Shown: positions 6,890-54,632 of the stretch, piece by piece
Layout of the letters: every line of letters begins with the position of its first letter
How positions within the stretch are numbered: position 1 is the first letter of the stretch
Assembly (NCBI GenBank): GCA_964373955.1
Contig: CAYJXA010000001.1
Coordinates: forward strand, 108,301-172,300
Direction: 5' to 3'
DNA: 64,000 bases
Source of the DNA: an uncultured Methanosarcinales archaeon
Lineage (GTDB): Archaea; Nanobdellota; Nanobdellia; Woesearchaeales; GW2011-AR9
Notes under the pieces: model-generated
The model's input: the letters and a program-made list of their open reading frames with translations, nothing else
Databases searched by the model: none
Told to the model about the DNA's origin: nothing
Position numbers and translations under genes: made by a program

Positions 6890-9800
6890 TTAACATCCCC
6901 ACTCCGCTGGAACGCGCCAGGTTGTCAAGTTTGTAGTAGTATTATAACCCAAATTTGTAGCGTTCGCAGTTTTATTCACGCAGTTTCCAAGATTAGCATT
7001 ACACTGCCACAACACAGTTACGTTCCCTGGAATTCCAATTTCCAGTTTCTTCGGTCTGAAAGCGTTAATTAATTCCTGACACTTGGTATTTCCCAAGCCA
7101 ACAAAAGTCCCATTAGTGGTCGAATTAATTCCGATGTCACCTGTTCCAGGAGTAAAGTTTTGAGCACCGGTAGAAACTTTACCAGTAATGCTTGCATTAA
7201 CTAAAACCACTTTCCACTTGCTGCTATTCGAAGCGGTAGGATTTTCTATGACCAGATCGAAGCCTTTAGTCTGGCTGTAATTCAAGTTAACACCTGCGCT
7301 GCTATTCCCCGTAACATTATTTGTCGTCCCACCAGGTAACCTAAAAGTAAAGGTAATATTTCCCAGCGGATCAGTTGCTACCGCTCCCGAAGGGGGCGTG
7401 AAAGGGAACGTAAAAGTACTGGTACAAGTTTTACAGGTAGTTAACGTTCCTTTCGTCGTAAAATTGGAACAAGCGCTCACAGCACAATTACTACTGATAT
7501 CGCACACCGTTGTTTTGTAGTAATATACTGTTGCATTGTTCAATGTAGAGCCAACTTTATCTGGATTAAAATCAAAGTTATCAATAGAAGCATCGTGCCA
7601 GAGCCGATAATCTTGAAGCCCAGTATCAATAAGACCACTATCTCTTATAGTTTTATTTAATACCTTACAGGTGCTGTCGTTATTGTAAAAAGAGAGGGTT
7701 CCATTTGCCGGTTCATTAGTATCATAACTGATGAACGCTGAATCAATGAATGGATCCACCTGTGACCAGGTTATTTTTGGTGCTGTCTTATCATTCGCAT
7801 CAGCTTGTAAGACTCCGCCACAGAAATAGGAATCATAGCTGCAGCCAGCATCATCACAATCTGTTAGTCCGTCAGCATCGTTATCCACACTATCCTTACA
7901 CTGGAACCCAGCTTCATTGGGCACGAATCCAAACTTGAGGAAGCTGAAACAGTCCGGATCATTACTTGCGGTTATTCCATCCCCATCATTGTCTCCTCCA
8001 GTGTTAGAACAATCCTCAAACTTAAAGTCAAAAGAGCCGGGAGTATAGAAGTATGGTCCGGCAACATCCACCACAAAGCTATCGTTAGTGGTAATATTAC
8101 TTACAGTAGCATAGACGCGCATACTCTTGCTCTTATTGTAAAGAGACTTAAACTTGCTGAGCTCTACTTTGTCTATCCCGGCCATTCCTCCCCCAATCAA
8201 AGAACACATTTTTGCCCGATCCGAGGTAACCGGTATGGGAACTGCTCCCCAGCTGCCATTGAAACACTGGAAAGATGTTTTTATTTCTGCTAAGCTAGAG
8301 GTATAATTACCCTGATACTTAAATGAAAACTCAAACCCAGTTAAAGAACTATTATCCCGGGCAGCACAATTATTGGTCGCATTTCCATCGGTATCAAGAT
8401 ACCAAAGAAAGGTGTGATCCAAACTACCTGATCCGACACCGTTAGTTTTCAAAGGAATACTATTGCAAATTCCACTTCCAGTGAAATCCTGAATTACTGA
8501 TCCCAGCACTAAACGATCAAAGTCATCACGCAACCCTAACTGGCCTAAGTCATAATTATCACTTATTCCAGGTTGGTTGCCATCATCACCTAAGAATGTT
8601 GGTTCTATATTTCCCATGAACGTAACAAAGCCACCTTCTCCTTTGGGATCACAGAATCCAGAAACATTTTGGTTTTCTACGTTACTGGTTACATTATTAT
8701 TAAACCGACTATCTGTAAACCAGGTACAACTTGCATTCAAAGATCCCTCACATTTACTTTTATTCCCATCAGCACTAAAGCAATTTCCTCCAAAGGATTT
8801 AGGTTCACATAAGCCCGTAAGCTGTTCACATAACCCATTTGTTCCCGTCAGACAGGTAGCATTCGACCTCGTGAAACAAACAGGTTCACATTGTCCCAAA
8901 GAGTTATAAGTAGTACTCCAAGCACAGACTTGGGTAGATATGCCTCCAATAGTCACATTTGCTTCGCATGCTGCCTGGGAACTTCTTCGAGTAGCGTTGC
9001 CAAAACACTGTGAAAAGATAAGCGGCTCACACCAGCCCCCTCCACCAAAACCGCCGCCGAAACCTCCCCCCGTATTCCATCCGCAGCCCCTCGTTGTTTC
9101 GCACGCAGTTTGATTTTGGTTAGAGAAGCAATTATCTTCGGCAGTTGCATTTACTTCACAAGTACCGCCTGCTATAGAAATATAAGTACAGTCGGCAGTA
9201 TTGGAACAGCCCGTCTGATCAGTATCAAATTGCCAGCATTGTGCTCCCGGAAAGTCACAATGACCACCACTGGCTCCTCCAAAAGTACTTTCAAAATCAT
9301 CTTTCAGCCAGGCGCAGCCGTTAGAAGTACAGGTGGAATTACTGGTATAGCTGGGGCAGTTGCCAAATTTATCGTTTAAATCGTCCCCCCCGCAGAATTT
9401 GTCTGTAGCACAGTCTGCATCCGCACAGTCCGTTTTAGCGTCATTATCATTATCCTGTCCGTCAAAACAAACTTCCCCGGTAAAACCTACCGGTTCGCAA
9501 TAATAATTTACACTATCCCAGCTGCAAGATCCATTTCCCCCTTTTCCAGTGTTAATGCAGTCACTAGAGGAATAACAGCTGAAACAATCATTCCCACAGC
9601 GTTTCTCATTCTTGCCAAAACAATATCCCGCTCCGTTGGCAGCGCTAGTATCCGCTGCCCAAACACAGCCAGCAGTACTGTTCTCACACTTTGCCTGTGG
9701 TGCAGTTAAGAACTCACAAGCACCACATACATCATCACAATCTTTTCCTCCACCAATCACAAAAGCGTCTTTCGGAGTACACCACCCATACCCGTTAAAA

Positions 9801-21302: not shown

Positions 21303-22877
21303 ATGACACCAGTAAAATACCGGCGCCTGCACACGAAGTTGAAAAATTTTCCTTTGGCACCAGTAAAATCCATCGCCACGTCGTACAATAAAGCTTTCCA
21401 TGCTAAAATATTCACGCTGTTTGCATCGTCCGAGAGTGAGATTTACTCCTTTGCTCAGCTTTATCCAGCACATTATGACTTCTGCCTTTGTTTTATCAAC
21501 AACGACCAGGGACAATGGTATCTCGGCAACGACCAAATTGAGCGAGTTCGGAACTGGGTTTTAGAAGAAGCTCGAAAAGATTCTCCAAAAGTTTCCGAAT
21601 TATATCAGCAATGGAAGAAAAATTGGGAGAAATATCTCCAACTCTCGGCAAAATTGCAACGGATTAAACTAGAAAAACTTTCCAAGAAAAAACTCTATGC
21701 CCTCTTTGAAGAGTTCCATTGCCGTTACGTAGTAGCGGGATCAGTAGCATACATTGCCGATGCTTTTATGTCTACGGGAACAGAAGATTGGCTGGAAACG
21801 CTAATCATGCAAGAATTAACCAAGGTAGGCGTTCCAAATACGGAAAGGGCCAAAAAAGTGAGGATACTCACCTCCCCGGTTCATCTCTCGTTTACGCTGG
21901 AAGCAGAATACCAATTGCTCAAAACAGCTCATGGGATTACCGCTCGATTCGCGGGAAAAGCTCCCTCCTTAAAAACGGTACGAAAAGAAGCCCCCTATTT
22001 GGGAAAAGAATTGCAAAAATTAGAGCAGAAATTTCACTGGATCCAGAACAATTATTACAATGTGCACTACCTCACTGCTGAAGAATTTTATGATGAAATC
22101 TGCCATCTGATTCAAGAAGCGGCAAAGAACAAGACGACCATCCACCAACTTTTGAGCAGGAGGGAACAAGAATTGCAACGGGTACGGAAAGAAAAAGAAG
22201 AACTGCTGAACTCCCTGGCCTTATCTCCATTCATGAAAAATCTAGTAGAGACCGCAACTTTATTTTCCAAATGGAAAGACGTGAGAAAGAGCGGAGTGTA
22301 TATTGGAATGTATCACTATGATCGTTTTCTTGCGGAAGTAGCGCGAAGAACTGGCTATAACAAAAAGCAACTTAATTTTTTGGTCTTTGATGAAATAAAA
22401 GAGGTGCTGCTAGACAATCGAAAACGCGATGCAGACATCGCCAAGCGAGAAAAACAATGCTTCTTTGCCGTAACGACGAAGGACTATTTTATCGCTGGAG
22501 GAGAAGAGGCAAAACCCTACTTTACACTTAATGCCCCCAGTGAAAACAGGAGTGTCACAGAATTGAAAGGAGTGGTTGCGTGTATGGGTTATGCCCGTGG
22601 CCGAGTAAGGATCATTAGAAAAACCGAGGAGATGAAGCAATTTCAAACCGGAGAAATCCTGGTTACAAACCAAACCACTCCAGAGTTTGTGCCAGTGATG
22701 AAGAAAGCTGCCGCCATTATCACAGAACAGGGAGGAATTACCTCTCATGCAGCAGTAGTGGCAAGAGAATTGGGAAAACCCTGTATTATAGGCACGAAAA
22801 TTGCAACTACTGCTTTATTAAATGGGGAAGTGGTGGAGGTAGACGCCAACAATGGAGTGGTAAGACGAGAGAGATGA
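21303..22877 (+). CDS. Protein with C-terminal PEP-utilizing enzyme mobile (phosphohistidine swivel) domain; N-terminal 400 aa uncharacterised
   Basis: C-terminus ILVTNQTTPEFVPVMKKAAAIITEQGGITSHAAVVARELGKPCIIG is the PF00391-type swivel domain with catalytic His. Confidence 0.6.
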   Translation: MTPVKYRRLHTKLKNFPLAPVKSIATSYNKAFHAKIFTLFASSESEIYSFAQLYPAHYDFCLCFINNDQGQWYLGNDQIERVRNWVLEEARKDSPKVSELYQQWKKNWEKYLQLSAKLQRIKLEKLSKKKLYALFEEFHCRYVVAGSVAYIADAFMSTGTEDWLETLIMQELTKVGVPNTERAKKVRILTSPVHLSFTLEAEYQLLKTAHGITARFAGKAPSLKTVRKEAPYLGKELQKLEQKFHWIQNNYYNVHYLTAEEFYDEICHLIQEAAKNKTTIHQLLSRREQELQRVRKEKEELLNSLALSPFMKNLVETATLFSKWKDVRKSGVYIGMYHYDRFLAEVARRTGYNKKQLNFLVFDEIKEVLLDNRKRDADIAKREKQCFFAVTTKDYFIAGGEEAKPYFTLNAPSENRSVTELKGVVACMGYARGRVRIIRKTEEMKQFQTGEILVTNQTTPEFVPVMKKAAAIITEQGGITSHAAVVARELGKPCIIGTKIATTALLNGEVVEVDANNGVVRRER

Positions 22878-22923
22878 TCAAAAATCAAAAAGTTTAAGTA
22901 CAAATATCTCTTTCTAATCCTTG

Positions 22924-23724
22924 ATGAAAGAAACCATTCTCAAATATGCTCTTAAAAATGCACTAGAGTTCCAGGGCAAAGTAAATCAAAATGTGGTGCT
23001 GGGATTAGTTTTAAGAGATCATCCAGAGCTTAAAAAAGATGTTCCCAAGGTTCGGCAAGAAATTGAAAAAGTCATTCTGGAGATTGGAAAACTAACCCTT
23101 GAAGAAAAAAAAGAGAAATTAGAACACCTTGCCCCGAATTTGCTTCAATCACCACCCGAAGAAACCGCCGAAGGACCATTAAAGCCGCTTCCCAAGGCAG
23201 AGAAAGGAGCGGTAAAAGTAAGAATCGCTCCTTCACCGAGCGGAGCGCTTCATATAGGGCATGCGTATGGAGCTTCTTTAAATTACGAATATAGTAAGAT
23301 GTATCAGGGAAAACTCATCCTGCGGATTGAAGATACCAATCCCGAAAATATCTATGAGCCCGCATATAAATTAATCGAGGAAGATCTGCGATGGTTAACG
23401 GAGAATAACGTGGCGGAAGTGCAGGTGCAATCTTCTCGCTTAGGGATTTATTACGATTATGCAGAAAAATTAATTCGCGACGGAAAAGCATATGTGTGCA
23501 CCTGCAATGCGGAAGTTTGGCGGGAGATGAAAAACCATGGTAAAGCCTGCTCTTGTCGAGAACTCCCCACTAAAGAACAGCACGTACGCTATGCGAAAAT
23601 GTTTAGCGGCTATGCAGAAGGGGAGGCGGTACTACGATTAAAAACAAATATCCAAGACAAGACTCCGGCGAGGCGGGATATAGGCATTATGCGTATTGTT
23701 GATCATGTTAATCCAAAGACATGA
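22924..23724 (+). CDS. gltX: Glutamyl-tRNA synthetase, N-terminal part (HIGH region), terminated by an in-frame TGA
   Basis: VRIAPSPSGALHIGHAYGASLNYEYS...LRIEDTNPEN class I Glu/Gln-RS signature. Ends ..RIVDHVNPKT then TGA. Confidence 0.7.
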   Translation: MKETILKYALKNALEFQGKVNQNVVLGLVLRDHPELKKDVPKVRQEIEKVILEIGKLTLEEKKEKLEHLAPNLLQSPPEETAEGPLKPLPKAEKGAVKVRIAPSPSGALHIGHAYGASLNYEYSKMYQGKLILRIEDTNPENIYEPAYKLIEEDLRWLTENNVAEVQVQSSRLGIYYDYAEKLIRDGKAYVCTCNAEVWREMKNHGKACSCRELPTKEQHVRYAKMFSGYAEGEAVLRLKTNIQDKTPARRDIGIMRIVDHVNPKT

Positions 23725-23748
23725 AAGCAACAGAAACTTTGGCCTTTT

Positions 23749-24624
23749 ATGGTTTTTTCAGTTGCAGTAGATGACCATGAACTGGGGGTTACTCACGTCT
23801 TAAATGGGAAAGATCAAGCAGATAATGCCGTGAAGGAGCGCTTGATTATGGAATTTTTGGGGTGGAAAGCACCGGAGTATAAACATTGGGGCATGATTAA
23901 TTTTGAAGGGTTTATCTTAAGCACTACTCAAACCAGGAAAGCCATCGAGCAAGGAGAATACAAAGGATGGGATGATATTCGCCTACCCTTTCTTCCTGCA
24001 TTGCGTAAAAGGGGTTACCAGCCGGGAGCTTTCCGCCGTTACGCTGTAGAAATCGGACTCAGCCTAAATGACAAGACCGTAAGTAAAGAAGAATTTTGGA
24101 AAAATATTAATGCCTTCAACAAAGAGATTGTAGATCCCCTTGCAAATAGATATTTCTTTATTGACGATCCCGTAGGAATAGTCATCGAAGGTTGCCAGAA
24201 AAAAAGTGTTGAGCTGGAATTGCATCCTGATTTTCCTTCGCGGGGAAAAAGAACTTTTCTTACTGATGAGAAATTTTACATTAGCATGCACGATTTTAAA
24301 AGACTGGGAGAAGGGTATATTCACCGTTTGATGGATTGTTGCAATTTTGAATTGCGGAAAAATAAATTATATTACCTTTCACAGAGTTATGAAGAATACA
24401 AAAATGCAACGAGGAAAGGACATATCATTCATTGGTTGCCTCACGCCGCTAAGAATGTTCAGATGGAAGTGCTTCAAGAGAATGGGTTAACTACCGCCGG
24501 ATTGGGTGAGGAGCGGTTAGCACAGTTGAAGGAAGGAGAAATAGTCCAGTTGGAACGGCGTTATTTTGCGCGGGTAGTGAGGAAAGAGAAAGAGAAGGTT
24601 ATCTTTTGGTATCTGCACAAGTAA
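23749..24624 (+). CDS. gltX: Glutamyl-tRNA synthetase, C-terminal part (same reading frame as 22924..23724)
   Basis: Begins MVFSVAVDDHELGVTHVLNGKDQ. This is the conserved AVDDH..GITHV block that follows the HPRTG-DKY.VWP segment, so the TGA sits exactly where the conserved Gly is expected. Confidence 0.7.
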   Translation: MVFSVAVDDHELGVTHVLNGKDQADNAVKERLIMEFLGWKAPEYKHWGMINFEGFILSTTQTRKAIEQGEYKGWDDIRLPFLPALRKRGYQPGAFRRYAVEIGLSLNDKTVSKEEFWKNINAFNKEIVDPLANRYFFIDDPVGIVIEGCQKKSVELELHPDFPSRGKRTFLTDEKFYISMHDFKRLGEGYIHRLMDCCNFELRKNKLYYLSQSYEEYKNATRKGHIIHWLPHAAKNVQMEVLQENGLTTAGLGEERLAQLKEGEIVQLERRYFARVVRKEKEKVIFWYLHK

Positions 24625-24688: not shown

Positions 24689-25228
24689 ATGGGAAAAATT
24701 AGCCGGGACACGCCATTAGCGGAGATTACACTACGACGATATGAAAAGCCAACTGCATCAGAAAGGGAGTTAGTGCGGAAGTTCTGTCTATCCGTAGGGT
24801 TATTGCAGCCGGGAGATTCCCGGGACGTGGTTGTGGATGTCTTGCATGTCCTATTGAAAGCAAAGCAGTACCGCAACGAGTTGCATTCAGAAGAGATCAA
24901 GGATCAAGTGATTGAGGAACGGAAGAGACAGAAACTTCCCCTGCTGGGAATAGCATCTTCTAATGTGCGCAGGCAGTTGAAACGAATCAAAGACCTGCAT
25001 TTAATTGAATCCAATGCTAATTTGTATCGTGTGGCAGAATTTAACGATATCAGTGAACTTTTTGAAGAGAAGATAGAACAGTTCATTCTGAAATCAGTGG
25101 TGAGCAGAGTTAAAGAGTATGTGAAAAAAATGGATGAAGAATTTCCTCCCAAGAGGAGGTTGGAAAGACTTCAACCACAGCCATTTTCAGACGAATTGCT
25201 ACAGTTAGCGAGGGCGCATAAGCAATAA
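24689..25228 (+). CDS. Hypothetical protein (possible HTH regulator)
   Basis: RBS ggggagg upstream. 179 aa, no confident motif. Immediately followed by the PHP gene. Confidence 0.4.
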   Translation: MGKISRDTPLAEITLRRYEKPTASERELVRKFCLSVGLLQPGDSRDVVVDVLHVLLKAKQYRNELHSEEIKDQVIEERKRQKLPLLGIASSNVRRQLKRIKDLHLIESNANLYRVAEFNDISELFEEKIEQFILKSVVSRVKEYVKKMDEEFPPKRRLERLQPQPFSDELLQLARAHKQ

Positions 25229-28053: not shown

Positions 28054-31000
28054 CTATTGCTTTTCTTTTCCAAGCTCTTTATTCAATTTCTCTAATTCTC
28101 CCTCAACCTGCAACAATCTTTTTTTCAGAGAAACTGACTCGCTGAGGGAAGACTTTGGACGAGAAATTCTTTCTGCTTCTTTCGCTTTCCGAGCACTATC
28201 AGCAGGCCCCAATCCGGCGATAGTTTCTTCGATTTGTCCTAGTTTTCGATTTAAGAATCTCTTTCGCTCTAGCGAGTCAACTCGGGAGGAAATATTCTCA
28301 TGGGAAGCAGGAGGTAAAAACTCTGGGGGTAGCTGTCCCGCTCTGAGCATACCGAAAGGGGGTTTTGGCGGTACCACTGTACCCGCTTCTGGCTGGTACT
28401 CCAATGATTTAAGATTTTTGTTAATCTGGTCATACTCTTCCTGTAGTTCTACCTGCTGCTTCTTTCCCCAAGCTGAAGGAAGAGTGACGCTAATGCTTGG
28501 TGCGGTCTTCTCAACTTCTTTCTTCCGTTCTCTGGTTTGGATAAAAGCTTTATATTTTCGATATTCTTCCCGCATCAAAATGGAAGTCAGGAAGAGCAAA
28601 GGTAAAAAGATAAGGAGAGCAATTAATCCTACCCAATACGAACTATACTGCAACGCCCTCCCTTTAAACTGTTGGAAGAATGCGCCCCCAACTAGAGCTC
28701 TTGCTTTAGGAGGCACAACTTCAGGGGCAACTACTACCGGAAGAGGTGCTGCCGCCATCACTTCGATCTGACGATGACTGGTAATGTGATAATCTCCATA
28801 CGTTAATTCAATAGTAAGAGTATACTGCCCTGGCTCAAGATCAGAAGGCACAAAGAGAGTTGCATTTTCTATTTCCTCCCTGCCGCTTTGAATAAAAATA
28901 ACATCTTTCCCCTCGGTTTTTATTACCCCCTCTTTCTCCAGGGTGAAATCCAAAACGACGTCTCCGGAAATATTGCTTACCGCTTTCATTAAATATCTCA
29001 CCATGATATTTTCCCCAGCCGGTACCGGAGAGGTAACATCAAGTATCCTTAGGTCAAAGAGTTTTACACAGGAGTGTTGAATGCACACTTCATCAGTACT
29101 ACATTGATCATCAGTGATACATTCATACTCTATGCATTGGTTATTGAAACAATATTGATCTGCTTCACAATCAGCATCGGTGGTGCATTCTACTTTTGGT
29201 TTACTTGCTCCACCTCCGCCGCCTCCACCCCCCGTTACCGCTTCGCTTTCCGTTGTAATCGTTTCACTGGCAGTAAAACTGCTGAAACTGGAAGTATTAA
29301 AAGTGAGTGTTCCGCTGCTGTAACTGATAAGAGTACAACCTGAGCCAAGACAATCAGATCCGCTTATCTCGCTAGCGCTTGATCTAAAGAGTGGATCCTT
29401 AGTCACCCCCGTAACTGAACTAAAAGTAAGCCCTTGAAGAATGATTGTTCCTGTCCGATTTAGGCCTACGAACGCAGAAGTATTAAAAGCGAAAAAATTA
29501 TCTGCAATGATGAGGTTCTTTCCATGCCCCAGCTCAAAGGGAAGACTGATATTAGAGATATTTGTCCATTGCACTGAACCAAAACTATTGTTATATTTCA
29601 TAGTTTGGGCGCAGGCAGATCCGGTAAAGAGAAGAGTAGTATTCTCAAACTGGTTATCCACAAAAGTGTTATTGCAAGAGTTCTCAACTGCTACTCCGGA
29701 AGTTATATTTCTCGTTTCCCGCACTTGTAAAGAGAGAGGATAGGTATATCCGCTACTAACATTAAAACTGGAGTTAAACAGGGCAGTAAGATTATCAATA
29801 TAATTAGAGGAATTGCCATTAGCTATTAAAGCATTAGTGATGTAAAAATCACAAATAGATCCGGGGAGATTAGTGACAACATTACTACAATTAGTTAATC
29901 CGTTAGTATCAGCAGAATCTTTCCGAAGAAAGATGGTCTGGTTAGAAGGAGTTGATCCTGAACTAGAATTAAGAAAACCAAGAATAAGATTAAAATTGTT
30001 ACTGCCATCCGCCATAATGATGGTGGTGTTATCTGCAGAAACATTAACGGAGCCGCCGCCGCCGGTGTACCTTAGGCTGCCATTATAAATCACCCCATTA
30101 TACGTCAAAGGCGAATAGGAGCTTCTAAAAGATATGATAGAAGATATTCGACTGCTATCATTGATAATATTACTCTCTAGATAGGAATGGTTAGAAAGAT
30201 TAAGAAGTACCGCCTGAACCCCCTCTTCATAAATAAGATTCCCCGTGAGATTTGCTTGGCTGCTGTTGAAAATTTGTATAGCCCAAGCAACATTAGAGTG
30301 TAAAACAGTATCAGTAATAATGCTCTTGCTGGTGTTATCAACAGAAATTCCCTGGGTATTCGTTGTAAAGGTGCTATTGCTTACTGTTACATTATTAGTA
30401 TTAGATTCAAAAACCCCCAGAGAAAAATTACTGATGAATATATTTTTAACAGTGACATTATTTACATCACTTATATTTACTCCTAACCCTACGCCATTGC
30501 CGATAATCGCATACCCTGCACCATCAATGATAATATTACTTCTCAGAACGGTAAAACAGGTTCCAGAGGAGGTAATATTTCTCGTTAAAGTAACGCTGGA
30601 GTTAACAGAGCCACACAATGTGTCAAGAGCCGCAAAACTGCTAAAAGAGGTAGTATTAAAGAGAAGTACTTGGCTAACATTATCAAAACTAAAAATAGTG
30701 CAGGAAGTGCCATTACAATTGGTTCCGCTGGTTCTTATTTCATTGGCATTAGTATTAAAAGTCTCCAATCTTCGGATATTGACCACTTCACTAAAACCAA
30801 GCCCCCTAAGAGTAATATTTGCGCTGGAGTTAATTCTTCCAGAGGTGAAAGCGGAAGTATTTACCGCAAGGGTATTATTTCCAATAAAGATATTCCTACC
30901 TACACCGATACCATTAGAATTATTAACATCTAAAGTTAAATCCCGAAGGAAACTACCCGTACCATTATCAATCCATTCGATCCCTCCAAAAGAGTTATTG

Positions 31001-34000
31001 TAAATAAGATAGTTACTGACATTAGCAGCACTATCGTCAGAAATTTCCACAGACCCATTAGAACTGATATTAATGTTGACGAAATAATTATTTCTTATAC
31101 AGTCTCCACTAGTGCAATCTCCCAGCGAAAAAGAGTTAAGGAAGAGAGCGCTAGACGTGCCAAAGTGAGTAATATTTTCATCTGTAAAAGTGTTGTTCTC
31201 AACTACTCCCTGCCCCTGAAGATCATAGGATATGCCCAGGCTGCCCCCCCCGGAATAGAAACGATTAGAAGAAAAATTCATAGTATCCACTCCAGCTATG
31301 AGCACGGTGCTCCCAAAAGCAGCAAAATCTATCAGGGTATTAGAGAAGAAAATTCCCCCGGACACATTACGTAAAATTATTCCCCCCTGGTTACTGTTAT
31401 TAGTTCTATTCACGTAATTTCCAGTGATATTAAAGCTTTTTGATTGAAATGAAATATTAGTATTAATTGCCGTCCCCGAAGAATTTAATTCAAAGAAGTT
31501 GTTAGCGATGGTCGTATGATTAGAGTTTTGTACAAAAAGAAGATCGAGACCTGATCTGGTTCGTGTTACTAAGGTCATATTGGTAATATTAGTACCGTTC
31601 GAATTCTGAACACGAATGTTAGTAGTGAAATTATTCAGCGTGAAATTAAAAAGAGTAATATTGTTAAAACCATTAATAGTTACTCCCGTCCCCGAGCCAT
31701 TACTGTAAACGGAATGGCCAGAACCATTGATGAAGAGGTTAGAATTATTAATAATAAAACAGTCCCCGGTACTACTTAAATCATGATTTAAGGTAAAACT
31801 AGCGGTTACCCTCCCACAGAAATTACTGATGGTAAGATTTCTTGTTTCAGAAACTGCAGAAGTTCCCCCGTCACTACAGTTAATAGACCAGTGGTATTCC
31901 CCATTGAGAAGAGAAGCATTAGCAGTTATACTAGTAGCGGTTGCATTTCGGGTAGAACTATTTCGGCCATAAGGGGCTGTAACCCCCTCGCTATTGTTCA
32001 AATAAAGAGTACAGTCTAAAGTTCCCTGTTGCGCTAGATCATCCGTGACATTAAAAGCAAAACGAGGAGTACTATTAGTATTGTTCAAAGTGTTATTGGG
32101 AGGAGATAAAAGGGAGATAGTAGGAGAACTGTTATCAGCGGTGACGGCAGTGAAACTGCCAAAAGAAGTCATGTTAAAGAGAAGAACTTGAGAGGCATTA
32201 TCAAAACTCAAAATAAGACAGGATGTTCCATTACAATATTCCCCTCCAGTTTTAATTTCATCGATATTCGTGCTAAACGTTTCTAACCGCTGGATGTTAG
32301 CTACGGAATTAAATCCTAAACCGACTAGGGTAAGATTGGCGCTAGAATTAATTCTTCCTGACGTAAAAGCAGACGTGTTAATGGTAACGCTATTATTACG
32401 AATAAAGAAACTCCTCTCTAATCCTATCCCCAAAGCATTACCAACCTGAAGATCTAAATCATCCAGGAAACTATTGTTAGTCCATTGAATTTTACCAAAG
32501 GAGTTGTTATATACAAAAGAATTGAGGTTAGAGTTTCCTGATTGATCATCTATTTCAGAAGTACTAGCGCTGGAGATATTATTATTTCGAAGAGTATTGT
32601 TGGCGGCACTAGCTTGGATAATAATACTTCTAACGGTATCAGTAGTGAAGTTATTCTCCACAAGCGTGTTTCGAGAGGCGTTCTGTCCAAGATTAACCAA
32701 CCCTCTTATAATATTAGACGAGATGTTGTTATCGCTGGAAGATTCACCGGTAGTAGTAATAAAGTTGAAATCAAGAGCAATACCGTCTCCCAAGCTGGTG
32801 ATATTATTAAAGTCTACAATACTAAAACTAGAGTTGACAAAATAAAGACTGCTGCTGTTAGTGGTAACAATTCTATTAAAACTAATGTTGTGGGACAGCG
32901 CATGTTGGGCTAGGATTCCCTCGGCTGCATTTCCAGTCGTATTAACATTATTAAAAATGATGGTGTTGTTTCTTTCACCCGGATTGATTAATATCCCTAC
33001 CGCTCCTAATCCCGAAGTGATAACCGTATTAGATTGCAGACGATTGGAAGAAACAGCAATGTCCAACCCATAAGAATTATTTCCTGAAGTCACCACTTTA
33101 TTTGAATCGATAACCAGGAGGGTTGAGGTGAGTGATCTTATTCCAGGTGACGAGTTAGTAAAAGTAGTGACATTATTTCTGCTGATGTTAGACCGGTTCG
33201 CGCTGGAGAAACTAATTCCTATACTGCCTGTGCTTGCATTGCCAGAAATAATGGTGTTATTCCAGATGGTGTGATTGACGGAGTCTCTTACATCTATTAC
33301 GGTGGAAAAGTTAACCGCGATTAGGTTTCGAACGGTGAGATTATTGAATCCAATTGCTAAAACTGCCGAGCCAGATCCATCTCCCGTTATGGTAAATCCC
33401 GCACCCTCAATCAGGATGTTAGAAGCGTTGACGATAAAGCACGTGCCATCAGTACTGATATTATTGTTAATAGTGACATCATTATTAATAGTGCCGCATT
33501 GAGTTACATTGCTTCCCGAAGTAGCGGAATAATTACTAAATGAAGCAACTGTCGCAGTTAAGATTCCCGTAGTAGAATCATAGGAAGCGATAGTGCAGAG
33601 AGTATTATCGTTATCACACCTCACCCCATCTTTCAATAAGAATGGCTGGGTAGAGTAAGTTAAATTTTTTATGTCTATACGGGCGGATCTATTAAGGTTA
33701 AGCGACTGAGCTGTGTCGAGAATACCCGTGAGATTTTGCTGTAAAAAGATAGTTTGTCCAAGCACTAAACTCATATTGGTAGTGAGATTTTCCCTGGTCC
33801 AGTTTATCATCCCAAAAGAATTATTGTAAATGAGCGTGTTGTTAGTCTCTAAGCCACTCAGATCATAAATACTAAAATTTACTACGGCATTGATGGTATT
33901 ATTCCGGAAAGTATTGTTATAGGTGCTAACATCACTTATCTCTATAGTGGCCAAGGTGGAATTGCCAGTAATATTGTTAGCGATAAAAGAGTTATTACTA

Positions 34001-37000
34001 TTATTGATGAGCAGAAGACCATAACTATTCCAGCCAATGATAGTATTAGATGCGATTATCCCCCCGCGGGTGTTCAACATATACAATCCTGGTGCTATTG
34101 TCCCGGACGTGTTCATATAATTCTGGGAGATGTTAGTCCTATTTGCAAAATTTCTAAGTTCTATTGACGCGCTAGCATTGGCAATAGTACTGAGAGTATT
34201 ATTAAAGAGTACACCGTCAAGAGCGCTGTCCCACCAGATTGCGTCTTTGTTAGAGGAAGTATCCGCCTGTTCAACCATCAGGCAGTTTTTAATGGTGACG
34301 TTATGAAAGCCGGTGTTATTAACTCCCTTTCCCTCTGCACTGGAAGAACCATACCTAATAACATTTCCAGTACAATTAATGAAAATGTTGGATGCGTTTA
34401 TAATGAAACAAGTGTTCTCCGCGCTTACATTCTGGTTGAGAGTAAAATTTCTATTGACATACCCACAACTAGCAATGTCCGCAGCAAAACTGCTAAACGA
34501 AGTAGTATTGAAACGCAAGATGCCGGTGTTTACATTATAATTAAAGACAAGGCAAGAATTGCTGCTGATACAATCAGTTCCTGCTCTGATCACGGTAGTA
34601 CTATTCTCATCATACTCTTCCAAACGACGGATACTTTCAACCCTGCTGACATTAAGGGCATAGAGGGTAAGATTCGCGCTGGAGTTTATTCTCCCCGATA
34701 CAAATGCGGAAGTATTAACGGTGATAATATTCTGCCCAATGAAAATATTTCTACCTAATCCAATCCCCAGACTATTATTAGCATTCAAGGTTAAATCCTG
34801 CTGAAAGCTCGTATTCGTCCATCGGATCTCCCCAAAGGTGTTGTTATAAATGAGATAATTTACCAAACCTGCTGATGACGAATCAGAAATCTCAGTGTTA
34901 TTTGACGTAAAGTTATTGTTTAAGAAGGTATTATTTTCAGAAGTGCTTAAAATTGACAACACCGTCGATTTACTCGAATTAAGGGAATTGTAATCGAAGA
35001 GGTTATAGCTGCCATTAACTAGGTTAATAGCAAGGTTAGGGCCAGAGCCAGTCGTATTGATGATGTTAGAACTAACATTATTATAGTTAGAAGTCCTTAA
35101 ACCAAGACCAGTAGAACCATTCCCGATAGAAAACAGAGTATTAGAAAGTAGGATATTGCCCTCTGAAAAGTTGAGCAGGATTCCATGAGAATTGGTAGCA
35201 TTAATAGTGAGGGTGCTGGTGTTAATCACAGAACTATTTGTGTCTTGAAAAACGATACCTGGTCTTTCTCCATCCCCCGCTGCGGTTTCGATAGTGACAT
35301 TAGAGATGGTAATATTAAACCCAGCAGTGATATGAATCCCTTCTGAAAAATTGTTGAGAGCAATATTCCTAATAGTAATATTCCTAAAGCCTGAACTGTT
35401 GATTCCAAACCCGCTTCCGGTTCCCGTGAGTACATACCCGGCACCATTAATCAGGATATTGGAAGCATTAATAGTTAAACAAGTTCCCGTAAAGGTTGTA
35501 TTTTGAGTTAAAGTGAGATTCCCATTGACCGTTCCACAAATGGAAGACCCGTTTCCCAAGGCAGCAAAACTGCTAAAAGAAGTAGTATTAAACCGCAAAG
35601 TACTATCTGCTCCCATACTAAACACGGTACAACTACTCCCCAGGCAATCCACCCCATTGTTAGAAATATTGGTAGAATTCGTATCATAAGCAGGAACTTT
35701 CAGAATAGAATTTATCGCCGTAAAGTTCAAACCAAAGACGGTTATGTTAGCTGTTCCGTTAATCCAGCTGCTCCCGAACGTAGAAGTATTTAACGCAATA
35801 ACATTGCTCCCTATAAAAAGATTCCTTGCTAAACCAATACCCTCACTGCTTGCAACAGAAAGTGTTAGGTTCCGAGTGAAGCTCCTTGTTCCATTATCAA
35901 TCCATTTTATCTCACCAAAAGAGTTATTATAGATGAGATAATTACTGACATTGGTAGCACTATTATCCTGTATCTCCTGGGACCCATTTGTGCTTATATT
36001 CACATTAATGAAATAATTATTTCTCACGCAATCCCCACCGGAACATTCTCCTTGCGAGAAAGAATTAAGAAAAACGGCGCTTTGAGTTCCAAAACTAGTA
36101 ATGTTGTCATTGGTGAAAGTGTTATTTTCCACAACGCCCATCCCTTGAAATCCAAAGGCGGTTGACAAGCTCCCTCCCCCAACGTATACTTTGTTAGAAG
36201 AAAAATTACTGTTAGTAACTCCCATTAAAAGAATCGCCGTTCCACCACTTCCAAAATCGAAGAGGGTATTGGAATTGAAATTCAAGCCAGTGATGTTTCC
36301 CAGATTGAATCCCCCCTGATTAGAATTATTTGTTCTATTAACGTAATTATTAGTAATGTTTAAATCGGTATTTAGAAAAAGAATGTTAGTATTAAGGGTC
36401 ATGGAAGAGGTATTCTGCTCAAAATAATTATTAACAATAGTGGTATGGTTTACATTTTGTAAGCTTATCAAAGCTTGCGTATTAGTTATGCGAGATAGAA
36501 AAGTAACGTTAGTGATATTAGTACCATTAGAATCCTGGACATAAATTTGTTGCGAGAAATTGTAAATAGTGAGATTAAAGATGGTAATATTATTGAAACC
36601 AGTGATATTAATTCCCACGCCAGAACCATTGCTAATAAGGGAATAACCAGAACCATTGAGAAATATGTCTGAACCATTAATGATAAAGCAGTGCGTATCC
36701 GCAACAATATTCTGAGTAAGAGTATAAACTCCGCGAGCAGTAAGATTAGCACAAGTTGATTGCAGGACCGTAGGGATGATGTATCCTGTGGGTGAAATGA
36801 TATTTGAAGGGTTATTCTCTGTTACTATTTCAACTGAAGCCCCAGTAATACTGTTTCCTGTTCCAAGGAAGGAATCCAGTGTAGTCACAATTATTTCTTT
36901 TTCGGAAAAAAAATGTCCCGGAATAGTATCAAAAACCAGAGTGGTAGTTGGCTCACTGACCAATAAGACAAAAATAAAAGAAATCATTCCTGCAAGCAAG

Positions 37001-37062
37001 AAATATTCTTTAGTCTCGTTCAGTGAATTCCTTTTCCAGTTTTTTCTCTCTCCTGATTTCAT
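28054..37062 (-). CDS. Giant (3002 aa) surface protein: N-terminal signal/anchor, multiple N-glycosylation-rich parallel beta-helix repeat modules, Cys-rich knot, C-terminal TM helix and cytoplasmic coiled-coil tail
   Basis: Uninterrupted 9 kb ORF. Asn/Thr/Ser-rich with hundreds of N-x-S/T sequons. The recurring TSFSSFAA motif marks about 6 modules. GGGGGGGG linker, CTTDADCEADQYCFNNQCIEYEC knot, then a TM (WVGLIALLIFLPLLFLTSILM) and a K/E-rich tail. Confidence 0.8.
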   Translation of the reverse strand: MKSGERKNWKRNSLNETKEYFLLAGMISFIFVLLVSEPTTTLVFDTIPGHFFSEKEIIVTTLDSFLGTGNSITGASVEIVTENNPSNIISPTGYIIPTVLQSTCANLTARGVYTLTQNIVADTHCFIINGSDIFLNGSGYSLISNGSGVGINITGFNNITIFNLTIYNFSQQIYVQDSNGTNITNVTFLSRITNTQALISLQNVNHTTIVNNYFEQNTSSMTLNTNILFLNTDLNITNNYVNRTNNSNQGGFNLGNITGLNFNSNTLFDFGSGGTAILLMGVTNSNFSSNKVYVGGGSLSTAFGFQGMGVVENNTFTNDNITSFGTQSAVFLNSFSQGECSGGDCVRNNYFINVNISTNGSQEIQDNSATNVSNYLIYNNSFGEIKWIDNGTRSFTRNLTLSVASSEGIGLARNLFIGSNVIALNTSTFGSSWINGTANITVFGLNFTAINSILKVPAYDTNSTNISNNGVDCLGSSCTVFSMGADSTLRFNTTSFSSFAALGNGSSICGTVNGNLTLTQNTTFTGTCLTINASNILINGAGYVLTGTGSGFGINSSGFRNITIRNIALNNFSEGIHITAGFNITISNVTIETAAGDGERPGIVFQDTNSSVINTSTLTINATNSHGILLNFSEGNILLSNTLFSIGNGSTGLGLRTSNYNNVSSNIINTTGSGPNLAINLVNGSYNLFDYNSLNSSKSTVLSILSTSENNTFLNNNFTSNNTEISDSSSAGLVNYLIYNNTFGEIRWTNTSFQQDLTLNANNSLGIGLGRNIFIGQNIITVNTSAFVSGRINSSANLTLYALNVSRVESIRRLEEYDENSTTVIRAGTDCISSNSCLVFNYNVNTGILRFNTTSFSSFAADIASCGYVNRNFTLNQNVSAENTCFIINASNIFINCTGNVIRYGSSSAEGKGVNNTGFHNVTIKNCLMVEQADTSSNKDAIWWDSALDGVLFNNTLSTIANASASIELRNFANRTNISQNYMNTSGTIAPGLYMLNTRGGIIASNTIIGWNSYGLLLINNSNNSFIANNITGNSTLATIEISDVSTYNNTFRNNTINAVVNFSIYDLSGLETNNTLIYNNSFGMINWTRENLTTNMSLVLGQTIFLQQNLTGILDTAQSLNLNRSARIDIKNLTYSTQPFLLKDGVRCDNDNTLCTIASYDSTTGILTATVASFSNYSATSGSNVTQCGTINNDVTINNNISTDGTCFIVNASNILIEGAGFTITGDGSGSAVLAIGFNNLTVRNLIAVNFSTVIDVRDSVNHTIWNNTIISGNASTGSIGISFSSANRSNISRNNVTTFTNSSPGIRSLTSTLLVIDSNKVVTSGNNSYGLDIAVSSNRLQSNTVITSGLGAVGILINPGERNNTIIFNNVNTTGNAAEGILAQHALSHNISFNRIVTTNSSSLYFVNSSFSIVDFNNITSLGDGIALDFNFITTTGESSSDNNISSNIIRGLVNLGQNASRNTLVENNFTTDTVRSIIIQASAANNTLRNNNISSASTSEIDDQSGNSNLNSFVYNNSFGKIQWTNNSFLDDLDLQVGNALGIGLERSFFIRNNSVTINTSAFTSGRINSSANLTLVGLGFNSVANIQRLETFSTNIDEIKTGGEYCNGTSCLILSFDNASQVLLFNMTSFGSFTAVTADNSSPTISLLSPPNNTLNNTNSTPRFAFNVTDDLAQQGTLDCTLYLNNSEGVTAPYGRNSSTRNATATSITANASLLNGEYHWSINCSDGGTSAVSETRNLTISNFCGRVTASFTLNHDLSSTGDCFIINNSNLFINGSGHSVYSNGSGTGVTINGFNNITLFNFTLNNFTTNIRVQNSNGTNITNMTLVTRTRSGLDLLFVQNSNHTTIANNFFELNSSGTAINTNISFQSKSFNITGNYVNRTNNSNQGGIILRNVSGGIFFSNTLIDFAAFGSTVLIAGVDTMNFSSNRFYSGGGSLGISYDLQGQGVVENNTFTDENITHFGTSSALFLNSFSLGDCTSGDCIRNNYFVNINISSNGSVEISDDSAANVSNYLIYNNSFGGIEWIDNGTGSFLRDLTLDVNNSNGIGVGRNIFIGNNTLAVNTSAFTSGRINSSANITLRGLGFSEVVNIRRLETFNTNANEIRTSGTNCNGTSCTIFSFDNVSQVLLFNTTSFSSFAALDTLCGSVNSSVTLTRNITSSGTCFTVLRSNIIIDGAGYAIIGNGVGLGVNISDVNNVTVKNIFISNFSLGVFESNTNNVTVSNSTFTTNTQGISVDNTSKSIITDTVLHSNVAWAIQIFNSSQANLTGNLIYEEGVQAVLLNLSNHSYLESNIINDSSRISSIISFRSSYSPLTYNGVIYNGSLRYTGGGGSVNVSADNTTIIMADGSNNFNLILGFLNSSSGSTPSNQTIFLRKDSADTNGLTNCSNVVTNLPGSICDFYITNALIANGNSSNYIDNLTALFNSSFNVSSGYTYPLSLQVRETRNITSGVAVENSCNNTFVDNQFENTTLLFTGSACAQTMKYNNSFGSVQWTNISNISLPFELGHGKNLIIADNFFAFNTSAFVGLNRTGTIILQGLTFSSVTGVTKDPLFRSSASEISGSDCLGSGCTLISYSSGTLTFNTSSFSSFTASETITTESEAVTGGGGGGGGASKPKVECTTDADCEADQYCFNNQCIEYECITDDQCSTDEVCIQHSCVKLFDLRILDVTSPVPAGENIMVRYLMKAVSNISGDVVLDFTLEKEGVIKTEGKDVIFIQSGREEIENATLFVPSDLEPGQYTLTIELTYGDYHITSHRQIEVMAAAPLPVVVAPEVVPPKARALVGGAFFQQFKGRALQYSSYWVGLIALLIFLPLLFLTSILMREEYRKYKAFIQTRERKKEVEKTAPSISVTLPSAWGKKQQVELQEEYDQINKNLKSLEYQPEAGTVVPPKPPFGMLRAGQLPPEFLPPASHENISSRVDSLERKRFLNRKLGQIEETIAGLGPADSARKAKEAERISRPKSSLSESVSLKKRLLQVEGELEKLNKELGKEKQ
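30250..36780 (-). repeat. Internal large segmental repeats within the giant gene (for example about 0.9 kb at 35.9-36.8 kb, about 70% identical at protein level to 30.25-31.2 kb)
   Basis: Protein segments FIINGSDIFLNGSGYSLISNGSGVGINITGFNNITIFNLT... and FIINNSNLFINGSGHSVYSNGSGTGVTINGFNNITLFNFT... align over about 300 aa. Confidence 0.5.
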
Positions 37063-51968: not shown

Positions 51969-54632
51969 CTACACTACCGTAACCAGGCGATACGTAGAGG
52001 ACCTGCTTTCGCCGTTGCCGACGGACACTTTGATCAGATACTCACCGGGAACAGCATCGTACGGGATCTCTACCGTCAGCAATTTATTGACACTCCTTCC
52101 ATCGCGAAGGTCAAACTCAGCACTGGCTCGATACACGTTCAAATCGTACATCATCACGCTGATTTGCAAATCTTCTAAATCTTCCTCGCCTTCATTTCTG
52201 ACGCCGACTCGCAGCAAAAGCATATCGCCGGCAACTACTTCTTCCGTTGCCAAATGTACGCTGGTAAAGCGGATATCATTGGTAGGAGCAGCATAGCGGC
52301 AATTGCCCACGTCTAAGGTGGCGCGGGAATTGTAATTCAAAGCGGTCGGATCAGTGCAGCCTAAGACATCGACGGGAAGCTCGTCCTCATCGCAAACGCC
52401 ATTACTGTTTTCATCAGGACAGGGAGGTACTTCCTCATCATCGCAAATACCATTCCCATTAGCATCAATGCATTCATCAACGGTATCACAAATGCCGTCT
52501 TCGTCGACATCTGCAGGACAGGGAGGGACATCCTCTTCGCAAGCATCTCCTATACCATCCCCGTCGCTATCTGCTTGAGTGGGGTTAAAGACTGCTGGAC
52601 AATTATCTTCATCATCGTTAATTCCATCCCCGTCGCTATCTTCTTCAGAGTCATAAACACAACTTGCTGGATCAGAGATCCCAGCGAAAGGATTGTAATT
52701 GAGAGCCGCTGGATCAAGGCAACCTGATTCTTCTTCATCACAGGTTCCATTACTATTTCCATCAGCGCATACTTCTTCCTCATCGCAAACGCCATTACTA
52801 TTTTCATCAGGACAAATTTCATCTTCATCGCAGATGCCGTTGCCGTTGGTATCGGGGCAGGGAGGCGCTTCTTCGTCATCGCAGATCCCATTGCCATTTA
52901 CATCCGGACAAGGAGGGACTTCTTCATCATCGCAAATGCCATTTCCATTTATGTCGGGACATGGTTCTTCGTATTCACAGCTACCATCGTCAGTAGTTGC
53001 TTCGGGATTATAATTAGTAGCGGTAGCATCCGTACACCCAGGAACTTCTACGACGGGAAGATCTTCAATAGTTATGGAAATGCTTTCAAAGTCTTCTAAT
53101 TCACCATCAGAAACAATAAAAGTAACTTCATATACTCCGGATTGTGCTAAGCCGGGAGTCCAGGTGAAAGTAGCAGTACCGTCTCCATTATCAATAAAAG
53201 TTGCTCCGACATCCACGAGATCAAGATCTTCAGCCTCGAAAGTTAACGCATCTCCATCAGGGTCGATAGCAGTAAGTAGTAATTCAAGTGTTTCACCTTC
53301 CGTAACCGTTTGATCGCCAATAGGCGCTAAAACGGGTGGCCTATTTACATTGCCTACACTAATAGTAATTGTTTCCGTATCAATTAAAGAGCCATCGGTA
53401 ATAGTGAACGTAACTTCATAATTTCCCGTTTGTTCAAAGGTGGGCGTCCAGCTGAAAGTTTGGGTTACTGCATCAAACGTAGCTCCTTCCGGAAGTCCGC
53501 TTGCAGAGAACGCAACCGCATCTCCATCCGGATCACTGCCGCTTACCGTGAACGTTAACAATTCCATCTCCGCTACACTTTGATCGCCAATGAGATCAAG
53601 CACCGGAGCGCGATTGGTATTGGCAACAGTAATAGTAAATTCTTGTTCTACACTATCAAAGCCATCGGAAACTCGAATGGTAACATCATGATCACCAGCA
53701 TCATTATAGTCTGGAGTCCAACGGAGACGCTGCAATTTGTCAATCGTCATCCCTGTAGGATATGTGGTCAAAGTATATGTTAAATCGTCTTCCGGGTCAG
53801 CATCGCTGGCGGTAACAGTATAACTATAAAGAGAACCTTCGGCTGCTTCCGTAACCGGCGTGGAGGTAATCGCAGGAATTCTGTTGACATCATGAACTCT
53901 AATAGTAATATATTCATCGGGAGAATAATTCTCGCCATCGAATGCGCGTAGTACTAAAGTAAGGGTTCTTTCTTCACTCGGATGTTGAACTTCATCATAC
54001 TCAGGAGTGTAGGTGATGCTGGTGATTACGCCGCTCTCTCGAACTGCACTCACATCAGCATCAACCAAAGGCAGATTCCAGCATGAAGAGCCAAAACCTA
54101 CGTTGATACAATATCGTTGAAGTAAAGCTACCTCTAAATCATCCCCATCTTGATCAACAGTAACAATTCGGGGAATCCATAACGTTTCTTCCTCATTAAC
54201 ATCATAATTGTCGGGCCACACTGAAACTGCAGGAACGGTATCGACGTTTAAGTTAAGATATTGAAAATCTTCTCCTTCTGTATTCATCACATGAACCCTA
54301 ACAATATAATCTCCCGCAAGTCCCTCGGTGTTAACTGTAAATTCTTGAATATAGGGATCATCAATATCCGCAGCAACAGTAGAATCAGCAAAAACAGTTC
54401 TTACAATAGTGCTTCCACGCAAAACATCAATCCATAGGCCGATATTTTCGGTACTGGTGACGTACACTAACAATTCAGCATTTTCACCTTGATCGACAGA
54501 TAAAGAATCATCGCCATTAGCGGTCCATTCACTGGTCAAATCAATAGTGTGATCTGCATATGCCAATGAGATTATTGTACTAGCTATTAAAATGAATGCA
54601 ATTATTCCCCCTAGGATTTTACTTGTTTTCAT
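51969..54632 (-). CDS. Surface protein with tandem thrombospondin type-3-like Ca-binding repeats and Ig-like/cadherin-like domains
   Basis: Signal peptide. At least 10 repeats of CPDxNGNGICDDEExPP and DSDGDGINDDEDNCPAVFNPTQADSDGDGIGDACE (TSP3 consensus DxDxDGxxDxxDNCP..N..Q.D.D.DG.GD.CD). Confidence 0.7.
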   Translation of the reverse strand: MKTSKILGGIIAFILIASTIISLAYADHTIDLTSEWTANGDDSLSVDQGENAELLVYVTSTENIGLWIDVLRGSTIVRTVFADSTVAADIDDPYIQEFTVNTEGLAGDYIVRVHVMNTEGEDFQYLNLNVDTVPAVSVWPDNYDVNEEETLWIPRIVTVDQDGDDLEVALLQRYCINVGFGSSCWNLPLVDADVSAVRESGVITSITYTPEYDEVQHPSEERTLTLVLRAFDGENYSPDEYITIRVHDVNRIPAITSTPVTEAAEGSLYSYTVTASDADPEDDLTYTLTTYPTGMTIDKLQRLRWTPDYNDAGDHDVTIRVSDGFDSVEQEFTITVANTNRAPVLDLIGDQSVAEMELLTFTVSGSDPDGDAVAFSASGLPEGATFDAVTQTFSWTPTFEQTGNYEVTFTITDGSLIDTETITISVGNVNRPPVLAPIGDQTVTEGETLELLLTAIDPDGDALTFEAEDLDLVDVGATFIDNGDGTATFTWTPGLAQSGVYEVTFIVSDGELEDFESISITIEDLPVVEVPGCTDATATNYNPEATTDDGSCEYEEPCPDINGNGICDDEEVPPCPDVNGNGICDDEEAPPCPDTNGNGICDEDEICPDENSNGVCDEEEVCADGNSNGTCDEEESGCLDPAALNYNPFAGISDPASCVYDSEEDSDGDGINDDEDNCPAVFNPTQADSDGDGIGDACEEDVPPCPADVDEDGICDTVDECIDANGNGICDDEEVPPCPDENSNGVCDEDELPVDVLGCTDPTALNYNSRATLDVGNCRYAAPTNDIRFTSVHLATEEVVAGDMLLLRVGVRNEGEEDLEDLQISVMMYDLNVYRASAEFDLRDGRSVNKLLTVEIPYDAVPGEYLIKVSVGNGESRSSTYRLVTVV
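52380..52960 (-). repeat. Tandem DNA repeats encoding the TSP3-like motif array
   Basis: Recurrent units ttcctcatcgcaaa(c/t)gccatt(a/c)c...tcaggacagggagg within the gene. Confidence 0.5.

Follow-up and report, generated by a model that had tools for sequence, protein, structure and literature searches.

The stretch of DNA analyzed here (the window) comprises 64,000 nucleotides (nt), has a G+C content of 41.8% and belongs to a DPANN archaeon: the homologues that best match its genes are named Woesearchaeota or Nanoarchaeota. On its forward strand the window contains a gene coding for a glutamyl-tRNA synthetase (GluRS), gltX, whose frame of 566 codons (22924-24624) is colinear and is broken once, by a TGA at 23722-23724. 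The upstream open reading frame (ORF), 22924-23724, codes for 266 aminoacids counted from ATG, with a TTG present at 22921, while the downstream remainder of the same frame ends at a TAA, 24622-24624. An earlier note on this DNA had described two ORFs in one frame, reading ...VDHVNPKT, stop, KQQKLWPFMVFSVAVDDHELGVTHV, and had named the gene as a GluRS; the reading is exact, and the identification is borne out by the Pfam domains and by the match to a GluRS of known structure. The search for further GluRS genes covered the 64-kb window of the 298,406-bp source contig, within which the interrupted gene is the lone gltX visible.

Judged by its domains (PF00749, PF03950 and PF20974), the gene is a GluRS of the archaeal/eukaryotic type (GlxRS). 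The joined protein of 566 aminoacids aligns without gaps to 121 full-length homologues (560-600 aminoacids, 62-68% identity); it also gives a full-length match (E = 1e-126) to the non-discriminating GluRS of M. thermautotrophicus (PDB 3AII), with which it shares the domain order (YqeY, Rossmann, CP, stem-contact fold, two beta-barrels) and the HP(K/R)TG turn, while in the window this turn has TGA in place of Gly and Asn in place of His. The Pfam cut-offs are exceeded by the catalytic domain and by both of the beta-barrel domains that bind the anticodon: PF00749, the class I E/Q catalytic domain, obtains 133.6 bits in the first part and 56.5 in the second, PF03950 obtains 64.7 and PF20974 31.4. 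The reading frame is interrupted at codon 267, where PF00749 is severed between profile positions ~161 and 183. Signatures of the HIGH and KMSKS types are both found; for the second, we take the LSTTQ loop to be the KMSKS equivalent of the GlxRS enzymes. Since HIGH and the KMSKS-like loop lie on separate parts, neither part should be catalytic alone and both must be kept, as is indeed seen. The features of the locus are collected in Table 1.

Table 1. Features of the interrupted GluRS gene, in window coordinates.
Feature	Position	Strand	Basis
TATA-like box TTTAAG	22893..22898	+	sequence; 26-31 nt 5′ of the GluRS ATG
GluRS part 1, residues 1-266: YqeY-like N-terminal domain, first Rossmann half, most of the CP insertion	22924..23721	+	PF00749 positions 2-161; aligns to 3AII residues 6-264; domain limits from PMC2978374
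HIGH signature H110-I-G-H113, in part 1 only	23251..23262	+	translation; H110, G112 and H113 invariant, I111 at least 90% conserved
Anomalous patch, residues 247-275 (hairpin 254-262 / 269-274 and preceding loop)	23662..23748	+	departures from conserved columns, permutation, branch counts, P0001 model
6-bp inverted repeat TCATGT (23703-08) / ACATGA (23719-24)	23703..23724	+	minimum-free-energy fold; completed by the T of TGA and the T of E260D
Out-of-frame ATG overlapping the stop (ATGA), opening a 17-codon ORF	23720..23773	+	sequence
In-frame TGA (codon 267) within the H/N-P-K-T-G-K turn of the hairpin in the CP domain	23722..23724	+	sequence, translation, alignment, homologue model
Eight codons KQQKLWPF between stop and Met276, including invariant W273 and P274; translated only on readthrough	23725..23748	+	translation, alignment
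ATG of invariant Met276, first possible restart codon, approximately at the start of alpha-G	23749..23751	+	ORF list, homologue model, PMC2978374
GluRS part 2 as its own ORF, residues 276-566: helix alpha-G, second Rossmann half, stem-contact fold, both anticodon-binding beta-barrels	23749..24624	+	PF00749 positions 183-310, PF03950, PF20974
KMSKS-equivalent loop L-S-T-T-Q (residues 332-336; consensus LSTSK), in part 2 only	23917..23931	+	alignment

The column occupied by the stop is well conserved, holding G in 107 of the 121 homologues, K in 10, N in three and R in one. The Gly is therefore not invariant, as the earlier note had it, 12% of the close homologues carrying K, N or R. At the nucleotide level, the codon found at this site in 35 related loci is GGA (15), GGG (6), GGT (4), GGC (4) or AAA (2), with AAC, AGA, GAA and GTA occurring once each; the TGA is thus one transversion away from GGA, the commonest codon in the relatives, and on this point the same note was right. 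The local structure was taken from an AlphaFold model (mean pLDDT 89.6) of P0001, a homologue numbered identically to the window protein; in this model a strand (254-262) is followed by a turn (263-268, H-P-K-T-G-K), a second strand (269-274) and a helix starting from residue 276. In the crystal structure 3AII, the Rossmann fold comprises residues 86-170 and 288-331 and the CP insertion residues 171-287, while helix alpha-G, residues 273-285, belongs to the aminoacid pocket (PMC2978374). On these models the CP domain ends with the hairpin bearing the stop, and the helix that follows this hairpin is alpha-G. The position would accordingly be a permissive one, in a hairpin turn of the CP domain and with Met276 approximately at the start of alpha-G.

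The closest relative of the window protein (P0123) is found on contig JAIYSA010000110.1 of GCA_053530855.1 (locus L001) and in an independent Logan assembly of SRR16110256 (L002). The L001 gene is intact, has 1701 nt as in the window with no indel, shares 83% identity at the protein level and 77% at the DNA level and has GGG at the site; it is also syntenic with the window, in the order Carb_kinase, NTP_transf_2, PEP-utilizers, GluRS, a 180-aminoacid protein, PHP and PurA. No relative closer than 83% was present in the collections searched. An uninterrupted gene, never above 68% in identity, was found at each of 17 loci taken from genome species representatives and 18 taken from JGI metagenomes; scanning metagenomes with the protein as guide yielded no sequence nearer than 67%; a 25-mer spanning the site, in which the T was replaced by N, had no match in the JGI metagenomes; and the two half-proteins were found once among 15 billion proteins. 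The earlier note had looked to sister genomes for the same interruption; none of the related genomes has it, the nearest relative and all the others being intact, and the interruption thus appears, in the available sequences, to be lineage-specific. All 121 homologues and the 35 loci are uninterrupted, with the exception of the error-ridden locus L038 (ENA ERZ1286166 contig_1941, 144 kb), a GluRS fragment of which was the sole match in a short-query protein search around the substitution patch (residues 247-275) and is not comparable. On this contig (5180-7374 and 1-1037), GluRS and glutamate dehydrogenase are each cut into several small ORFs; the chopped ORFs are the mark of an indel-ridden long-read assembly, in contrast to the clean window.

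The strongest clue to the nature of the stop, which the earlier note overlooked, is a cluster of substitutions flanking it, in a protein that shows normal purifying selection elsewhere. Departures were scored at the 229 columns whose conservation among the 121 homologues reaches 90% or more. Window GluRS has 8 of them, a normal total compared with the homologue median of 6, and seven of the eight lie inside residues 247-275, within 20 codons of the stop: N247T, M250R, F253I, E260D, H263N, V272L and L275F. Both N247 and H263 are 100% conserved in the homologues; V272L is shared by the orthologue of L001, which is intact, and the cluster is enlarged by E269Q and R271K. When the 8 departures were permuted, seven of them fell in any 29-residue span in one of 200,000 trials (P = 5e-6), and never around codon 267; when each of the 121 homologues was used in turn as the query, no cluster larger than five was found, two N-terminally truncated entries aside. 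The hairpin is not generally variable, since the region holds 75 of the 805 homologue departures compared with 19 of the 229 conserved columns, and neighboring genes of the window lack any such patch, their departures (1/121 and 6/98) being scattered and conservative.

Within the patch, all eight strictly invariant residues are retained and no indel is present. The replacements have a mean BLOSUM62 score of +0.75, compared with -0.11 for random single-base changes (P = 0.065); they thus lean mildly towards conservative ones and look selected. Eight of the nine replacement changes are transversions; this 8:1 bias compares with ~9:5 elsewhere, by hand count, and is too weak to tell error from evolution.

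Several sources of the patch were considered and rejected. Adenine mutagenesis of the type produced by diversity-generating retroelements does not fit, the derived changes hitting all four bases; import from another GluRS does not fit either, the derived residues being absent or at most 2% frequent in the homologues. Nearby repeats acting as mutation templates were likewise discarded, the matches being of 9-10 nt only, which is the chance level. Two such pairs of direct repeats, both of chance-level length, are found at 23620-23629 / 23667-23676 (GGGGAGGCGG / GGCGAGGCGG), where the second copy holds the derived M250R codon, and at 23654-23662 / 23716-23724 (AAGACAAGA / AAGACATGA), where the second copy holds the stop. 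The short inverted repeat that ends at the stop (Table 1) could be due to chance, could be the footprint of a quasi-palindrome mutation or could be relevant to reinitiation.

The differences between window and L001 were polarised by means of the other homologues (relative-rate test). Window-branch and L001-branch changes number 6 and 7 in residues 1-96, 6 and 5 in residues 97-246 (thus 12 and 12 upstream of the patch), 9 and 2 in the patch, and 4 and 7 in residues 276-566; outside the patch, the totals are 16 and 19. Both parts are under purifying selection, and part 2 is at least as constrained as in the intact lineage. The patch gained ~0.3 changes per codon, and a part 2 left untranslated over the same time would be expected to have collected ~90 changes; since only four are found on the window branch, an old pseudogene is excluded, with no relaxed selection outside the patch. 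The pseudogene test agrees with this result: over 1701 nt there is one lesion, no indel and a single departure outside the patch.

A restart of translation after the stop would have to rely on few signals. No motif resembling a Shine-Dalgarno (SD) sequence or a TATA box was found before the ATG at 23749. This ATG, which the earlier note had placed 8 codons downstream, is in frame and does exist; nothing indicates, however, that it opens a separate gene, as it codes for an internal Met that is invariant in every homologue. In the window as a whole only ~14 of 52 genes have an SD-like motif, and most have an A/T-rich TATA-like box 21-35 nt 5′ of the start (~50 genes), which suggests mRNAs that are mostly leaderless or short-leader; the TTTAAG box preceding gltX suggests a transcript of the same type for GluRS. 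Reinitiation after a stop has been documented in Archaea, where an SD motif is not strictly needed (PMC6728339). Most window genes are likewise devoid of SD motifs.

As regards readthrough, the fold of the RNA from 23692 to 23830 is no better than that of shuffled sequences (z = -0.6), which gives no indication of a stimulating structure, and the TGA-A context is common to ordinary stops of the window. Neither a stop conserved in orthologues nor a stimulatory context or structure, the features expected of programmed readthrough, was therefore found. Two ways of repairing the message were also rejected: splicing by the archaeal tRNA endonuclease, with 0 bulge-helix-bulge motifs in 23640-23810 (shuffles average 1.2), and ribosome hopping from ACA266, the sole nearby ACA (23730) landing out of frame.

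Taken together, these data suggest that gltX is probably working despite the stop. The hairpin seems to have lost its constraint because the chain is broken, or rarely completed, at that point, while the rest of the protein seems to be conserved because it is still used. In the sequence comparison, the substitution cluster tilts the balance to a tolerated break over an assembly artefact, and a genuine, tolerated stop is favored because it needs the fewest coincidences. We rate it only a little short of an even chance that GluRS has been functional across the UGA long enough for the hairpin to be remodelled, either as a nascent two-subunit enzyme, arising by a nonsense mutation and reinitiation, or as the first archaeal gene relying on ordinary UGA readthrough, which involves neither selenocysteine nor pyrrolysine. 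The specific form that we tentatively prefer, as a possible rather than a probable one, is that of a genuine nonsense codon, carried for some time, with gltX still in use as a two-piece enzyme restarted at Met276.

According to this proposal, a G-to-T change would have turned GGA (Gly267) into TGA in the turn of the last CP hairpin. Ribosomes would then terminate part 1, residues 1-266 with the HIGH signature, at the TGA, and some of them would reinitiate 24 nt downstream at the pre-existing codon of the invariant Met276, producing part 2 (residues 276-566, with alpha-G, the KMSKS-like loop and the anticodon-binding domains). The two parts would join non-covalently into an active enzyme, as can happen when a class I synthetase is severed within the CP region, and the broken hairpin, freed of most of its constraint, would have undergone the burst of substitutions at residues 247-275. 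We infer here that the stop is real and not an artefact, that it is older than the burst, and that reinitiation and assembly of the fragments occur.

Several points weigh against this two-piece enzyme. The interruption is known from one genome only, the nearest relative, at 83% identity, and every other homologue being uninterrupted. Part 2 starting from Met276 would be without strand 269-274, including the invariant W273 and P274, and it would be made with no recognizable SD-like or TATA-like signal; the SD-like GAGG that is there by chance in L001 has been lost before Met276 in the window. The out-of-frame ATG overlapping the stop may capture the reinitiating ribosomes, for which it could compete with the in-frame one. 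The eight codons following the stop are changed only conservatively and without indels, which fits readthrough at least equally well. Finally, the proposal assumes that the burst came later than the stop.

Class I synthetases tolerate cuts in the CP region. Two-piece MetRS and IleRS have reportedly been made artificially, and the alpha/beta LeuRS of Aquifex aeolicus, mentioned in PMC3643597, is said to be a natural case; as in these enzymes, the break in the window gene falls in the CP insertion between the two Rossmann halves, HIGH and KMSKS are on different pieces, and non-covalent assembly would be required. Unlike them, the window case is known from sequence alone, and a restart at Met276 deletes eight residues including the invariant Trp-Pro. 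We know of no description of a split GluRS so far.

Split informational genes, tRNA synthetases included, are known in DPANN (PMC6349945). The window gene resembles the split alanyl-tRNA synthetase and reverse gyrase of Nanoarchaeum equitans (PMC6349945) in its DPANN host, in being an essential translation enzyme, and in having two ORFs that each code for a part of one conserved protein, both under selection; as for several of the N. equitans splits (PMC6349945), the gene is intact in close relatives. Unlike those splits, however, the two parts are contiguous and in the same frame with one stop codon between them, part 2 has no recognizable start signal, and the arrangement is found in one genome. 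A second parallel is the archaeal termination-reinitiation described in Haloferax (Huber et al. 2019, PMC6728339), where an AUG also follows soon after an upstream stop on the same mRNA. The cases shown there are overlapping, ATGA or TGATG (PMC6728339), whereas in the window 24 nt separate the stop from the in-frame AUG that follows it, and the ATG overlapping the stop (ATGA) is in another frame.

The earlier note had listed error, recent pseudogene, readthrough and split enzyme with no choice among them, and it is partly supported by the present results. The first of these, an artefact of sequencing or assembly, is rather unlikely in our judgment, yet it is to be taken seriously. The true codon at 23722 would then be a sense codon, probably GGA, and the TGA either a lone consensus error in a remodelled hairpin or part of ~87 nt of poor or chimeric reads. 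A priori, when an essential gene of a metagenome-assembled genome (MAG) shows a lone in-frame stop, an artefact is the commonest source; moreover, the stop is one base away from the commonest codon of the site, both halves look fully functional, the population is known from a single assembly, the patch has approximately the length of a read tail, and its changes are mostly transversions. However, nothing else is broken in the 64 kb: there is no second interrupted gene, the ORFs of 3002 and 1351 codons are intact, the neighbors are free of patches and the source contig extends for 298 kb, all of which supports a clean assembly. In addition, as the patch encloses the stop, a lone base-call error, like a very young mutation, needs an unrelated rare event, namely the coincidence with a patch of a type unseen in the 121 homologues. 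A patch made of errors would account for stop and substitutions at once, but it should hit the invariant residues at random and not spare all eight of them, nor should its replacements lean towards conservative ones; indels are absent, and a truly error-ridden assembly such as L038 looks different.

Leaky or programmed readthrough of the UGA by a near-cognate tRNA (Trp, Arg, Cys or Gly), with a tolerated residue inserted at a surface turn and a low yield of full-length enzyme that would be enough for a slow-growing symbiont, is in our view unlikely, although credible. The site accepts G, K, N and R in the homologues, both halves are under selection, and the eight codons after the stop, W273 and P274 included, have remained in frame with conservative changes; moreover, a full-length product needs no new start signal and loses no conserved strand. 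These arguments are countered by the lack of a stimulatory RNA structure and of any Rfam match, by the ordinary context of the stop and by its conservation in no relative. The only archaeal cases of readthrough that are established are those of selenocysteine and pyrrolysine, while near-cognate readthrough of UGA is undemonstrated (PMC8211752). Readthrough, furthermore, leaves the lost constraint on the hairpin unexplained.

A recent null allele, that is a real but very young or partly segregating nonsense mutation in a gene now dead, with reliance on a second GluRS or on the host, is quite improbable. The lesion is single, the gene is intact in the nearest relative and DPANN genomes are reductive. 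However, aminoacyl-tRNA synthetases are in the single-copy core of Nanobdellota (bioRxiv 10.64898/2026.05.13.725050); hence, a null allele should be lethal and should not reach consensus frequency. Furthermore, no relaxation is seen outside residues 247-275, and the co-location of the stop with the patch (29 of 566 codons, ~0.05) would be a coincidence.

The stop codons of the window genes are TAA in 35 cases, TAG in 8 and TGA in 9, the GluRS stop included. When the frames were re-read with TAA and TAG alone as stops, internal TGA was absent from every other real gene of the window, and GluRS is the sole real gene in the 64 kb whose frame continues past its stop; no tRNA gene was present in the window, and no Rfam family, SECIS included, was matched in it. 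Genome-wide recoding, which the earlier note had considered unlikely on the grounds that the ORFs of 3002 and 1351 codons are TGA-free and encode Trp by TGG, is thus ruled out, its observation on the two ORFs being confirmed; a selenoprotein gene is discarded too, as no SECIS element or other Rfam family is matched and column 267 holds G, K, N or R, never C. A UGA read as Gly is the known code of SR1/Gracilibacteria. Codon reassignment or special recoding, with UGA read as Gly (code 25), Trp (code 4) or selenocysteine, is scarcely conceivable and, on the codon usage of the window, effectively refuted already: the TGA does stand at a normal Gly position, as in code 25, but TGA terminates 8 other genes of the window, is found inside none, and Trp is always TGG. 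Recoding by selenocysteine or pyrrolysine (PMC8211752) resembles the present case in the in-frame UGA within a gene that appears functional; unlike in such systems and in code 25, the window has no SECIS, UGA is an ordinary stop elsewhere and the stop is not conserved in orthologues.

Some observations concern the neighboring genes. The PEP-utilizers-domain gene directly 5′ of GluRS (21303-22877, forward strand) has 49% identity to its counterpart in L001 (7305-8822), while the genes that flank it, Carb_kinase and NTP_transf_2, share 94-95% identity with those of L001; the PEP-utilizers gene either evolves very fast or was replaced. L001 also has a DUF2238 gene between NTP_transf_2 and the PEP-utilizers gene, which the window is without. 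The protein of 179 aminoacids coded 3′ of GluRS (24689-25228, forward strand) has no Pfam match and falls in a cluster, formed at 90% identity, whose 17 members sit on contigs where GluRS is only ~67% identical to that of the window; judged by these sequences, it is unusually conserved and always beside GluRS. Three very large ORFs are present on the reverse strand: 28054-37062 (3002 aminoacids, with NosD and right-handed beta-helix matches), 6890-10945 (1351 aminoacids, no Pfam match) and 51969-54632 (887 aminoacids, with repeats of the Ig, PKD and cadherin-like types). We regard all three as probable giant surface proteins, of the kind typical of DPANN.

If the stop in gltX is an artefact, the case indicates that, when a single stop shows up in a core gene of a MAG, the reads should be consulted before the gene is called a pseudogene or the completeness of the genome is marked down. 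If it is real and tolerated, it would point to a one-step origin of the split informational genes of DPANN, in which a nonsense mutation in a permissive CP turn is rescued by an internal Met or by leaky termination, and GluRS would become one of the few class I synthetases that occur naturally in two pieces; should the rescue be by readthrough, it would be the first in Archaea beyond those for selenocysteine and pyrrolysine. Either way, the lineage-specific remodelling of this normally invariant element, with N247T, H263N and the other changes, is evidence at the sequence level that the CP hairpin is less indispensable than its conservation would lead one to believe.

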